NCBI RefSeq assembly: GCF_001677475.2
Contig: NZ_CP015229.1
Strand: one strand, 5' to 3'
Length of the DNA: 64,000 nucleotides
Origin: Escherichia coli
Lineage (GTDB): Bacteria; Pseudomonadota; Gammaproteobacteria; Enterobacterales; Enterobacteriaceae
Each line of letters opens with the position of its first letter. Within the stretch, counting starts at the first letter, position 1. Shown here piece after piece: positions 49,101 to 58,100 of the stretch. A program made the position numbers.

Positions 49101-52100
49101 GGACAGCATAACCTGGCGTCCGGTGGCGGATAACAACACCCGCGCGGCAATGCTGCAAACCGGTGAAGCGCAGTTTGCTTTCCCCATTCCCTACGAGCAG
49201 GCCGCACTGCTGGAGAAAAACAAAAATATCGAGTTGATGGCCAGTCCGTCAATTATGCAGCGTTATATCAGTATGAACGTGACGCAAAAGCCATTCGATA
49301 ACCCGAAGGTCCGTGAGGCGCTGAATTATGCCATTAACCGCCCGGCGCTGGTGAAAGTGGCCTTTGCGGGCTATGCAACGCCAGCTACTGGTGTGGTACC
49401 GCCGAGTATCGCCTACGCGCAAAGTTATAAACCATGGCCTTACGATCCAGTGAAAGCGCGCGAATTACTGAAAGAGGCGGGATATCCCAACGGTTTCAGT
49501 ACCACGCTGTGGTCGTCACATAACCACAGCACCGCGCAGAAAGTGCTGCAATTTACCCAGCAGCAGTTAGCGCAGGTCGGGATTAAAGCCCAGGTGACTG
49601 CGATGGATGCCGGACAGCGGGCGGCAGAAGTTGAAGGTAAAGGGCAAAAAGAGAGCGGCGTGCGGATGTTCTACACTGGCTGGTCGGCTTCAACCGGCGA
49701 AGCTGACTGGGCACTATCGCCACTGTTCGCCTCGCAAAACTGGCCACCGACGCTGTTTAATACCGCGTTTTACAGCAATAAACAGGTGGATGACTTCCTG
49801 GCTCAGGCACTGAAAACTAATGATCCGGCGGAAAAGACCCGCTTGTATAAGGCGGCGCAGGATATCATCTGGCAAGAGTCGCCGTGGATCCCGCTGGTGG
49901 TAGAAAAACTGGTGTCGGCACACAGTAAAAACCTGACCGGTTTTTGGATCATGCCAGACACCGGCTTCAGCTTTGAAGACGCGGATTTGCAATAAGCAAC
50001 GCAGGGAGTGGAATGCTTAATTACGTTATCAAACGCTTGCTGGGGTTGATTCCGACGCTGTTTATCGTCTCGGTGCTGGTGTTTTTATTTGTCCATATGC
50101 TGCCCGGCGATCCGGCGCGATTGATTGCCGGGCCCGAAGCTGATGCGCAGGTTATAGAACTGGTGCGTCAGCAGCTGGGGTTGGATCAGCCGCTGTATCA
50201 CCAGTTCTGGCACTATATCAGCAATGCTGTGCAGGGGGATTTTGGCCTGTCGATGGTGTCGCGTCGTCCGGTTGGCGATGAGATTGCCAGCCGCTTTATG
50301 CCAACGCTGTGGCTGACCATAACCAGTATGGTCTGGGCGGTGATATTTGGTATGGCGGCGGGAATTATCGCCGCCGTCTGGCGTAATCGTTGGCCGGATC
50401 GATTGAGTATGACCATTGCGGTGTCGGGGATCTCGTTTCCGGCATTTGCTCTGGGGATGCTTTTAATTCAGGTATTCTCCGTTGAACTGGGCTGGCTGCC
50501 TACCGTGGGAGCAGACAGTTGGCAGCACTACATTTTACCCTCCCTGACGCTCGGCGCGGCAGTGGCAGCCGTGATGGCGCGCTTTACCCGCGCGTCGTTT
50601 GTCGACGTTTTAAGCGAAGATTATATGCGTACCGCGAGGGCGAAAGGGGTGAGCGAAACCTGGGTTGTCCTCAAACACGGGCTACGCAACGCGATGATCC
50701 CGGTAGTGACCATGATGGGCTTACAGTTTGGCTTTTTGCTCGGTGGTTCCATCGTGGTGGAGAAAGTTTTCAACTGGCCCGGACTTGGACGCTTACTCGT
50801 TGACTCCGTAGAAATGCGCGATTACCCGGTGATTCAGGCGGAAATTCTGCTTTTCTCGCTGGAATTTATTCTTATCAACTTAGTGGTGGATGTGCTTTAC
50901 GCTGCCATTAACCCGGCTATCAGGTACAAGTAAGGATGCGACTATTTAACTGGCGACGTCAGGCGGTGTTAAACGCCATGCCACTGGTCAAACCTGACCA
51001 GGTACGTACACCGTGGCATGAATTCTGGCGACGATTTCGCCGTCAGCATATGGCGATGACCGCCGCATTATTCGTTATTTTATTGATTGTGGTGGCCATT
51101 TTTGCACGCTGGATCGCTCCCTATAACGCCGAAAATTATTTTGATTATGACAATCTGAATAACGGACCTTCTTTGCAGCACTGGTTTGGCGTCGATTCAC
51201 TGGGGCGCGACATTTTCAGCCGTGTCCTGGTTGGTGCGCAAATCTCGCTGGCGGCGGGCGTGTTTGCCGTGTTTATCGGTGCGGCGATAGGGACGTTGCT
51301 GGGCTTGCTGGCTGGATATTATGAAGGCTGGTGGGATCGGCTGATCATGCGCATTTGTGATGTGCTGTTTGCCTTCCCGGGTATTTTACTGGCGATCGCT
51401 GTTGTTGCGGTGTTGGGAAGCGGCATTGCTAACGTGATTATTGCAGTTGCCATTTTTTCCATCCCCGCGTTTGCCCGCCTGGTGCGCGGCAACACGCTGG
51501 TGTTGAAACAGCAAACCTTTATTGAGTCAGCACGCAGTATTGGTGCCAGCGATATGACCATTTTGTTGCGTCATATCCTGCCTGGGACCGTCTCTTCTAT
51601 CGTGGTGTTTTTCACCATGCGCATCGGTACCTCGATTATCTCTGCCGCCAGCCTGTCATTTCTCGGCCTCGGTGCGCAGCCGCCGACACCAGAGTGGGGA
51701 GCAATGCTCAATGAGGCACGAGCGGATATGGTTATCGCGCCGCATGTCGCTGTTTTTCCGGCCCTGGCTATTTTTCTGACCGTACTGGCGTTCAATTTGT
51801 TGGGCGATGGTTTACGCGATGCGCTGGATCCGAAAATTAAAGGATAGTTACATTTGAATATTGCTTGAAAGAGTAATCACCTCACAGGAAATTATTGCCC
51901 TAAGCAAGTGTTGTAACTTTCTGCTGATTTTGTAGAATCGGGTAATTTGGTTAAAAAGCCGCAGCAAGGGACTGTTTTTGCAGCGGCACAGCGTTCAGAC
52001 AGTTATTTTGTTAAATGTATTAACATGCTGAGTTTATACGAAAAGATAAAGATAAGGCTGATAATTTTATTTTTATTGGCAGCACTGTCATTTATTGGCC

Positions 52101-55100: not shown

Positions 55101-58100
55101 GTGATATCGGGTGCCAGTTGCCTCTATCTGGTACGCAGAGTGATTAATCGTGGTATTGTGGAGAAAGAATCCATTATTAATAACCATTTTGAACGCGTAC
55201 TGGATGGCGGGCTTTTCTTTTCGGCTGCCGATGTCAAAAAACTCTACAGTATGTATAACTCGGCGTTCCTGGACGACCTGACCAAAGCAATGGGCAGAAA
55301 ATCCTTTGACGAAGATTTAAAAGCGCTGCCGGAAAATGGCGGTTATTTGTGCCTGTTTGACGTCGATAAATTCAAAAACATTAACGACACCTTCGGTCAT
55401 TTGCTGGGCGATGAAGTGTTGATGAAAGTGGTGAAAATCCTTAAATCACAGATCCCGGTAGATAAAGGTAAAGTCTACCGCTTCGGAGGTGACGAATTTG
55501 CGGTGATTTATACTGGCGGCACGCTGGAAGAGTTGCTATCAATTCTAAAAGAAATCGTTCATTTCCAGGTGGGAAGCATTAATTTAAGCACCAGTATCGG
55601 TGTAGCGCATTCAAATGAATGTACTACCGTCGAACGCTTGAAAATGCTGGCGGATGAGCGGCTGTATAAGAGTAAGAAAAACGGCAGGGCACAGATTAGC
55701 TGGCAGTAATCATTATTCGCAGGCCGGACAAATGATTTTGCCCGGCCTGAATTAATTAAACCCGGCTACCCCACAAATCGTACTCATCGGCGTGCTCGAC
55801 TTTCACACGCAGGATATCACCCGGCTTAACGTTGGTTTCACCATTGAGATAAACCGCGCCGTCGATTTCCGGTGCATCTGCCATGCTGCGACCAATCGCG
55901 CCTTCTTCGTCCACTTCGTCGATAATCACCAGAATTTCACGGCCCACTTTCTCTTGCAGGCGCTCGGCGGAAATCTGCTGCTGCAACTGCATGAAACGGT
56001 TCCAGCGTTCTTCTTTCACTTCTTCCGGAACCTGGTCAGGCAGGGCATTGGCGTCTGCACCTTCAACCGGGCTGTATTTAAAGCAGCCAACGCGATCCAG
56101 ACGTGCTTCTTTCAGGAAGTCGAGTAGCATCTGGAAATCTTCTTCCGTCTCGCCAGGGAAGCCGACAATAAAGGTTGAGCGTAGGGTCAGTTCCGGGCAG
56201 ATTTCGCGCCACTGTTTGATGCGCGCCAGTTGGCGATCTACAGAACCCGGACGCTTCATCAGTTTGAGAATGCGCGGGCTGGCGTGCTGCAACGGAATGT
56301 CCAGATACGGCAGGATTTTGCCTTCTGCCATCAGTGGGATGACGTCGTCCACATGCGGATAAGGGTAAACGTAGTGCAGACGCGTCCAGATCCCCAGTTT
56401 CGATAACTGTTCGCACAGGCTGACCATGCTGGTTTTTACCGGCTCGCCGTTGTGGAAGCCAGTACGATGTTTAACATCGACGCCATAGGCGGAAGTATCC
56501 TGCGAGATCACCAGAATCTCTTTAACGCCCGCATCAACCAGACGTTTAGCTTCGCTTAACACTTCGCCAATCGGACGGCTCACCAGGTCGCCGCGCATAG
56601 ACGGAATAATGCAGAAGGTGCAGCGGTGATTACAGCCTTCAGAAATTTTCAGATAGGCATAATGACGCGGCGTCAGTTTCACACCTTGTTCTGGCACCAG
56701 GCTCAGGAATGGGTTGTGTTTCGGTTTTGGCACGTAGTGATGAACGTGCTCCAGAACCTGCTCATAGCTATGAGGCCCGGTGATTTCCAGCACTTTCGGG
56801 TGGACTTCGCGGATCTGATCTTCTTTTGCCCCCAGACAACCGGTCACAATTACCTTGCCGTTTTCATTCAACGCTTCACCAATGGCTTCCAGTGATTCTT
56901 GTACCGCGCTGTCAATAAAGCCGCAGGTGTTGACGATCACCATGTCCGCATCGTCATAGCTCGGTACCACGTCATAACCTTCAGTGCGTAGTTCGGTGAG
57001 AATACGCTCTGAATCGACAAGGTTTTTCGGACAGCCAAGGGAAACAAAGCCGATTTTCGGCTGGGGAGTTACTTTGCTCATAGCTTAAAAAATATTCAGT
57101 TACAGGAAAGGTCAGGGCAGGGATTCTACAGAGTTCTGGATAAAATTTGTATCGCAATCTCATTCGCTGGCGGAGGCGAAGGAAATGTAAATTTTGTTAA
57201 TTCGGCGTGAAGAATTGATCCTGGACAGCATTTTGCTCAAAAAATAGCCATACTATTTAATTGCAACAAGGCTGGAAAGAGGAGGATCGAAGTATGTTCG
57301 TTGACAGACAGCGAATCGATCTGCTGAACCGGTTGATCGACGCACGCGTTGACCTCGCTGCATACGTGCAACTGAGGAAGGCAAAAGGATACATGTCCGT
57401 CAGCGAAAGCAATCATCTACGAGATAACTTTTTTAAACTGAATCGCGAACTGCACGATAAATCTCTGCGGTTGAATCTTCATCTGGATCAGGAAGAGTGG
57501 AGTGCTCTTCATCATGCTGAAGAAGCATTAGCGACAGCCGCAGTATGTTTGATGAGTGGGCACCATGATTGCCCGACTGTTATTACCGTCAACGCCGATA
57601 AGCTTGAAAATTGTCTGATGAGCTTAACGCTGAGTATCCAGAGCCTGCAGAAGCACGCCATGCTTGAGAAGGCCTGAAAACTAAGGGGGAGAAAGCGCCT
57701 CCCCCTTCATGTTTAAGTTTTTGTAAAAATGAATTTGTTATCTCCTCCACTGACTACGCTTTAAGCCAGAGTCAATCCGGAGGCGTTATGCATCGACAAT
57801 TCTTTTTCCTTGTGCCCCTTATTTGTCTTACTTCCGCTCTCTGGGCGGCTCCTGCAACGGTAAATGTCGAAGTACTGCAAGACAAACTCGACCATCCCTG
57901 GGCGCTGGCCTTTTTACCCGACAATCACGGTATGTTAATCACGCTGCGCGGCGGCGAGTTGCGTCACTGGCAAGCAGGAAAAGGATTATCTGCGCCGCTT
58001 TCCGGAGTGCCGGACGTTTGGGCGCACGGGCAGGGCGGCCTGCTGGACGTGGTTTTAGCGCCTGATTTTGCTCAGTCTCGCCGCATCTGGTTAAGTTATT

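Follow-up and report, generated by a model that had tools for sequence, protein, structure and literature searches.

Neighbouring pdeI and dgcI genes in Escherichia coli: a predicted sensor phosphodiesterase and diguanylate cyclase pair of probable cassette origin

When a gene for breaking cyclic di-GMP (c-di-GMP) directly precedes a gene for making it, do the two encode a local signalling device or independent enzymes that happen to be neighbours? The question is raised by pdeI and dgcI in a 64,000-nucleotide (nt) stretch of the Escherichia coli contig NZ_CP015229.1 (assembly GCF_001677475.2), hereafter the window. An initial annotation had placed adjacent membrane EAL and GGDEF protein genes at 52025-55709, and these limits proved exact, both open reading frames (ORFs) being recovered:

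52025..54373, + strand: pdeI (yliE, b0833 orthologue), ATG-started ORF of 782 amino acids (aa), predicted inner-membrane c-di-GMP phosphodiesterase
54381..55709, + strand: dgcI (yliF, b0834 orthologue), ATG-started ORF of 442 aa, inner-membrane diguanylate cyclase

Our overall reading, to which we give a probability of roughly 0.7, is that one operon encodes a sensor phosphodiesterase and a cyclase, that signals would set the balance between the two, and that the pair originated as a cassette. The initial annotation had suggested a local make-and-break module lying next to rimO and the biofilm regulator gene bssR. Its gene identities and intact motifs were borne out, co-transcription is likely, and the tie to rimO and bssR was not borne out; a local make-and-break module is plausible but unproven.

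The proposed names agree with the K-12 annotation: the genes are collinear with b0833/b0834 of K-12 MG1655, and locus, order, protein lengths (782/442 aa), 7-nt spacer and flanks are all the same. Nucleotide identity to MG1655 is 98.7% without indels, and the strains differ by five substitutions in each protein, none of them catalytic (E79D, D155N, S364A, V707L and D728E in PdeI; S37G, V141A, A264S, K319N and P415T in DgcI; all conservative or non-catalytic). The 3.7-kb pdeI-dgcI stretch was matched in 5425 of 5426 complete E. coli genomes (megablast), where the genes are annotated as pdeI and dgcI. The pair is thus a re-identification of annotated genes, and everything of substance about it has been annotated or published already. 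Taken whole, the window differs by 1.1-1.5% from its best match among the 5,426 complete E. coli genomes, with gene order as in K-12; the best E. coli identity is 98.9% for window positions 30000-36000 and 98.5% for 52025-55709. This divergence suggests a source that probably falls outside the E. coli strains sampled, such as a Shigella or some rare Escherichia lineage.

Catalytic and sensory domains of PdeI and DgcI

The domains that we could assign in the two proteins are the following:

52127..52474, + strand: CHASE9 periplasmic sensor of PdeI, residues 35-150 (Pfam PF17153, E 7.5e-63)
53135..53569, + strand: degenerate GGDEF-like domain of PdeI, approximately residues 371-515 (structure model, fold search)
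53618..54325, + strand: EAL catalytic domain of PdeI, residues 532-767 (Pfam PF00563, E 8.9e-70, profile 2-236/236)
54456..55067, + strand: GAPES2 periplasmic sensor of DgcI, residues 26-229 (Pfam PF17156, E 3e-142)
55263..55691, + strand: GGDEF catalytic domain of DgcI, residues 295-437 (Pfam PF00990, E 2.2e-25; TIGR00254, E 5e-26)

The EAL and GGDEF motifs, described from the start as intact, belong to complete catalytic sets inside Pfam domain matches, and are therefore not chance tripeptides. In PdeI the motif itself is E562-A-L (nt 53708-53716), and the remaining catalytic residues are R566, N623, E655/E658 (EITE), D685-D686 (DDFGTG), K706, E740/E743 (EGVE) and Q760. Matches to active EAL domains of known structure had E-values from 1e-43 to 1e-28 and aligned every catalytic residue, and these residues are invariant in five family members; the end of loop 6 reads DDFGTGLSNL, not the usual ...GYSS. 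With this domain profile and complete residue set, PdeI has the sequence features of the active class of EAL phosphodiesterases. DgcI carries GGDEF at residues 369-373 (nt 55485-55499), together with D327-V-D329, K332, N335, D336, G339-H340, D344, R367 and K434/R436 in KSKKNGR (430-436). These residues aligned with those of the DgcZ and DosC structures, and the motifs are invariant in six family members. Domain profile, intact GGDEF and metal- and GTP-binding residues place DgcI in the active class of cyclases. The RxxD inhibitory site is absent from DgcI, where the equivalent positions read VDKG; this predicts a cyclase free of product inhibition and leaves its class membership unaffected. 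A motif table for strain CFT073 (PMC3484386) reached the same residue conclusions for both proteins and lists RxxD as absent in DgcI.

In PdeI and DgcI alike, two hydrophobic segments flank a periplasmic domain of ~200-250 aa (residues 6-36 and 282-311 of PdeI, 3-32 and 222-252 of DgcI, by hydropathy), so the sensors should be periplasmic and the catalytic domains cytoplasmic. The segments of DgcI bracket GAPES2, giving a simple layout of transmembrane segment (TM), GAPES2, TM and active-type GGDEF. In PdeI, CHASE9 makes up the first half of a periplasmic region of ~250 aa; a faint dCache_1 match is recorded for a plasmid paralogue. The layout of PdeI is accordingly longer: TM, CHASE9/Cache-like periplasmic domain, TM, helical linker, degenerate GGDEF and EAL.

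The degenerate domain was overlooked in the initial annotation: the 220 residues from the second membrane segment of PdeI to the EAL domain are a domain and not a mere linker. Searched alone, this middle segment gave nothing meaningful in Pfam (E<=10) or in a phmmer search of the PDB, and hhalign against a GGDEF alignment returned the expected register with an E of only 0.086. An AlphaFold2 model of residues 300-782 had a mean predicted local distance difference test score (pLDDT) of 85.9, and its best Foldseek matches were tandem GGDEF-EAL proteins (DosP, PA0575, MorA, PA0861 and LapD, over 424-473 columns). Because structure model and fold search both match tandem GGDEF-EAL proteins, we regard the segment as GGDEF-like, and the modelled cytoplasmic part of PdeI as a degenerate GGDEF followed by EAL. 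NADLY (441-445) replaces GGDEF, and the metal- and GTP-binding residues are replaced as well. A 2025 preprint (10.1101/2025.05.09.653004) assigns PdeI this architecture too.

Both genes are under purifying selection. In comparisons with K-12, E. albertii and E. fergusonii, the ratio of nonsynonymous to synonymous substitution rates (dN/dS) was 0.06-0.08 for pdeI and 0.05-0.11 for dgcI, with dN itself several-fold above that of gsiD or rimO.

Published activity data agree with the sequence for both partners. Among four S. flexneri cyclases in a quadruple-cyclase-deficient strain, DgcI gave the highest c-di-GMP by liquid chromatography-tandem mass spectrometry (LC-MS/MS), and a GG->AA change abolished it; a riboswitch reporter was also used with GG->AA controls (PMC11327459). 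The partial S. flexneri DgcI sequence (P0009) is 99% identical over 61% of the query. DgcI is also toxic in E. coli from a higher-copy vector (Sarenko 2017), which is consistent with an uninhibited cyclase. As for the phosphodiesterase, infection by phage N4 requires c-di-GMP, and overexpression of pdeI renders cells resistant to N4 (efficiency of plating <8e-8), as does that of five other phosphodiesterases; in this pdeI resembles active enzymes. Both enzymes therefore look active by intact residues and published phenotypes, hydrolysis by PdeI resting on sequence and the overexpression phenotype.

Arrangement and expression of the pair

Two short elements bear on how the genes are transcribed:

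54374..54380, + strand: pdeI-dgcI spacer, 7 nt from the pdeI stop codon TAG to the dgcI ATG (sequence; identical in K-12)
51911..51938, + strand: candidate sigma-70 promoter of pdeI, with -35 TTGTAA, a 16-nt spacer and -10 TAGAAT (51933-51938), ~87 nt before the ATG

The 7-nt gap leaves no room for a terminator, and an AAGAG Shine-Dalgarno-like sequence sits within the 3' end of pdeI. E. albertii has the same 7-nt gap, and in E. fergusonii it measures 9 nt. The pair thus shows the hallmarks of an operon: one strand, a short gap, and adjacency kept in three Escherichia species as well as in diverged paralogues. Expression data point the same way, as both mRNAs rise at 37 °C in CFT073 and BolA overproduction raises both (3.4-fold and 2.0-fold). 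From the gap, the conserved pairing and the joint mRNA induction, co-transcription is very likely.

The operon would be transcribed from the candidate promoter, which had 9/12 consensus matches in a consensus scan. The sole conserved block of the gsiD-pdeI spacer, GATTTTGTAGAATC, holds the -10 element and does not vary between the window, K-12, E. albertii and E. fergusonii. Folding of this spacer was no better than that of shuffles (z = -0.43). The pdeI leader also contains, at ~51958-51988, an imperfect inverted repeat of 10 bp (GCCGCAGCAA...TTGCAGCGGC); it is present in K-12 and not in E. albertii or E. fergusonii, and since it is unconserved it is probably not functional. A weak RpoN peak within yliE has been reported by genomic SELEX (gSELEX). 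We considered an internal sigma-54 promoter for dgcI and rejected it, as no GG-N10-GC site exceeded 5/12 consensus positions.

No Rfam match at E<=1 was obtained in 51600-57400, and neither a riboswitch nor a c-di-GMP effector gene was found at the locus; within the window, no effector gene adjoins the pair.

An Escherichia-specific insertion with relatives on plasmids

The pair stands between gsiA-D upstream and rimO (minus strand), bssR, yliI and gstB downstream. GC content is 41% and 44% in its two genes vs ~53% in gsiBCD and rimO, and the drop coincides with the borders of the pair. Full-length PdeI orthologues are confined to Escherichia (E. albertii 88%, E. fergusonii 70%; a partial E. 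marmotae PdeI reached 92% over 68% of the query), and outside the genus the PdeI search gave generic EAL-domain matches only.

We searched the gsiD loci of 80 Enterobacterales species, 79 of them non-Escherichia, for PdeI, DgcI, RimO and BssR (tblastn, E<=1e-10). The pair was present only in the Escherichia locus. None of the 79 others had a PdeI-like match, and none had a DgcI-like match downstream of gsiD; the only DgcI-like matches among them came from two Erwinia loci, as two GGDEF-domain fragments of ~30% identity lying ~9 kb upstream of gsiD. In many loci (Citrobacter, Salmonella, Enterobacter, Klebsiella, Kluyvera and others) a convergent rimO follows gsiD after ~50-300 nt, and in many of these bssR also lies beyond rimO. 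It follows that the rimO/bssR neighbourhood is the ancestral state, into which the pair was inserted later. On this comparative evidence the pair is an AT-rich, Escherichia-specific insertion, apparently acquired in the Escherichia ancestor. We saw no repeat or remnant that could be an insertion scar; the gsiD-rimO spacers of other genera are short, with unrelated hairpins.

This history bears on whether the pair could be functionally tied to rimO and bssR, as a c-di-GMP module feeding the neighbouring biofilm regulator. The one feature that speaks for such a tie is physical proximity, both being loosely related to biofilms. The initial annotation had put the pair immediately upstream of rimO, which does not hold in the transcriptional sense: rimO (55756-57081) is read from the minus strand, towards dgcI, bssR lies beyond rimO with its start ~1.6 kb downstream of dgcI, and a strong hairpin stands between dgcI and rimO:

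55720..55749, unstranded: hairpin CAGGCCGGACAAA-TGAT-TTTGCCCGGCCTG, 12 bp with one mismatch, within the 46 nt that separate the convergent stops of dgcI and rimO

The hairpin is GC-rich and identical in K-12, with an RNA fold of -22.3 kcal/mol (z = -3.0 vs shuffles); it is probably a two-way transcription stop, although it lacks a U-tract. Moreover, the neighbourhood is older than the pair, which is missing from all 79 non-Escherichia loci, in many of which gsiD abuts rimO, and for BssR, whose only Pfam match is YliH, no c-di-GMP-binding domain is known. We consider a functional tie to rimO and bssR very improbable, and the adjacency probably incidental.

The same junction holds other DNA in several other genera. 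Unrelated inserts of ~2-8 kb without EAL/GGDEF genes lie between gsiD and rimO in loci L007, L012, L015, L020, L026 and L027, and likewise in L042, L047, L049, L055, L061 and L068. This junction seems to be a hot spot that has taken up insertions repeatedly. E. albertii (L004:9672-10385) has, in the dgcI-rimO interval, an extra minus-strand ORF of 237 aa with weak HEAT-repeat matches; its overlap with the end of dgcI is slight, and the ORF is absent from E. coli and E. fergusonii.

The pair has diverged relatives that keep its organization. DgcI paralogues of ~40% identity are each preceded by a PdeI-like gene of 772-782 aa in the same order, with junctions of a 4-9 nt gap or an 11-nt overlap. 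Identity to the chromosomal proteins is 34-46% for PdeI and 39-42% for DgcI, being 48-60% in the catalytic domains and 20-35% in the sensor domains, and every catalytic residue is kept. In the plasmid collection, DgcI-like genes occurred in 108 records and PdeI-like sensor regions in 76, nearly all from Escherichia; ~8 of each set (some of them very large records) were near-identical to the chromosomal genes and the rest fell below 60% identity. The two genes were adjacent and in the same order in all five plasmid accessions common to both lists.

Some of these copies stand next to a plausible target. The genes bcsA (PilZ)-bcsB-bcsC follow the pair immediately, on the same strand, in E. ruysiae (L091) and on an IncHI1B plasmid (L093), and other copies adjoin sucrose-utilisation genes or insertion sequence (IS) elements. 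YliE/YliF-like pairs beside bcsA2-4 cellulose synthase clusters on plasmids and islands are described in the Romling-lab preprint (10.1101/2025.05.09.653004). The native job of the cassette family would most likely be signal-dependent control of an exopolysaccharide synthase; as to a local module with its effector, the paralogues beside bcsA-PilZ are suggestive only. On the IncHI1B plasmid (L093:15951-17297, pMTY9754_IncHI1B) a group II intron reverse transcriptase/maturase gene (ltrA) separates bcsB from bcsC. In L089:2672-4991, in a Salmonella-type plasmid context, the PdeI-like gene is split into ORFs of 324 and 521 aa next to an intact DgcI-like gene; in both L089 and S. flexneri it is the phosphodiesterase partner that decays first.

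Partners or independent enzymes

Conservation of the cassette supports, on comparative grounds, a functional coupling of the two genes, and is the best argument for it. If coupled, the pair may work as follows. It would have entered the gsiD-rimO junction in the Escherichia ancestor as a member of the mobile two-gene cassette. PdeI would hydrolyse c-di-GMP and DgcI would make it from GTP, and the ratio of synthesis to breakdown may depend on periplasmic ligands. With a phosphodiesterase of its own, the uninhibited cyclase might spill less c-di-GMP into the global pool. The AT-rich islet may be held at very low laboratory expression, possibly through silencing by nucleoid proteins (H-NS), a suggestion that comes from base composition alone; we found no paper linking yliE to H-NS.

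Several observations weigh against this picture. At the level of expression, the candidate promoter is a consensus match only, and sigma-70-like sites in the region are no more frequent than in shuffles. DgcI protein was undetectable in K-12 in the laboratory cultures of Sarenko 2017, one of only four such cases among the 29 GGDEF/EAL proteins, and PdeI is not among the four; equal co-expression at the protein level is thus not seen in K-12. At the level of activity, we found no in vitro assay of PdeI in the accessible literature, which did not cover key 2016 papers. At the level of partnership, a two-hybrid survey of E. coli concluded against specific interacting pairs of cyclases and phosphodiesterases and called many of these enzymes 'lonely players', although it used cytoplasmic parts only and DgcI without vector swap. 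In CFT073, the phenotype of a yliF deletion was complemented by the foreign cyclase WspR (PMC3484386), which points to a global rather than a local effect. S. flexneri has an intact dgcI, but its six intact phosphodiesterase genes do not include pdeI, so one partner can be kept without the other. Finally, DgcI with the GG->AA change continues to lower invasion and plaque size in S. flexneri (PMC11327459), and deletion of dgcI yields fewer curli-positive cells yet higher early curli expression; these two effects hint at an additional, non-enzymatic role of DgcI.

The points on partnership are those expected if PdeI and DgcI were independent contributors, with no specific partnership, shared target or local signalling. 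To the survey, the WspR complementation and the S. flexneri gene content one can add that the N4 phenotype of pdeI overexpression is the same as that of five other phosphodiesterases, and that the two periplasmic sensors come from different families, CHASE9 and GAPES2. However, order and tight spacing are kept at 34-46% identity, on chromosomes and on ~70-100 plasmids, a pattern not easily accounted for unless joint inheritance or expression is selected for, and in some copies the genes of a PilZ cellulose synthase follow directly. Independence is hence a serious minority view, which we think unlikely.

The effects of inactive DgcI raise a different possibility, namely that one partner is mainly non-enzymatic, a scaffold or trigger, and that there is no true make-and-break couple despite the intact motifs. 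In Shigella, DgcI phenotypes do not track the c-di-GMP level (PMC11327459), and the authors of the curli study read the two-sided effect of the deletion as a possible second mechanism. As cited in the CFT073 study of induction at 37 °C, motility suppressors of a pdeH mutant arise through mutations in pdeI, suggesting that without such mutations PdeI is by default inactive or weakly expressed. Against this stand the conservation of every catalytic residue under purifying selection across diverged members, the synthesis of c-di-GMP by DgcI in vivo (PMC11327459) and the phosphodiesterase phenotype of pdeI overexpression. A mainly non-enzymatic partner therefore seems to us highly unlikely, and we retain the coupled sensor phosphodiesterase and cyclase as our reading.

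A bolder version of this coupling would make PdeI and DgcI a single membrane device, heteromeric and switched by ligand. Its CHASE9/Cache-like and GAPES2 sensors would read the same host-associated cue at 37 °C, and the chromosomal pair, an orphaned copy of a cassette made to control a cellulose synthase of its own, would feed c-di-GMP locally to the core Bcs complex or another exopolysaccharide machine and not to the global pool. We regard it as speculative and rather doubtful.

Known systems offer partial parallels. DosC and DosP, a cyclase and a phosphodiesterase, form a complex. Their genes, dosC-dosP (dgcO-pdeO), share one E. coli operon (PMC5635695), as pdeI and dgcI probably do, and DosP is the best structural match of the cytoplasmic GGDEF-EAL part of PdeI; the Dos proteins differ in being soluble haem-based oxygen sensors with the cyclase gene first, whereas PdeI and DgcI are membrane proteins with periplasmic sensors. 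A second parallel is DgcC and PdeK, again a membrane cyclase and a membrane phosphodiesterase in which, as in PdeI, a degenerate GGDEF precedes EAL; unlike pdeI and dgcI, dgcC and pdeK are not adjacent genes. Work by Richter et al. from 2020 is said to describe DgcC, PdeK and cellulose synthase as a local module of E. coli, for which contact with the Bcs machinery was reportedly shown experimentally. Closest are the YliE/YliF-like pairs of plasmids and islands, which have the same gene order, domain make-up, catalytic residues and tight or overlapping junctions. These pairs are diverged, lie on IncHI1B or other plasmids or by IS elements, and in some cases precede bcsA-bcsB-bcsC, whereas the chromosomal pdeI-dgcI pair has no adjacent effector gene.

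PdeI and DgcI are among the least understood of the 29 GGDEF/EAL proteins of E. coli, with almost no laboratory expression. Their Escherichia-specific insertion, their membership of a cassette and the cellulose synthase neighbours of its plasmid copies, which are partly in the literature, point to possible roles at 37 °C or under host-like conditions and in the output of cellulose or another exopolysaccharide.

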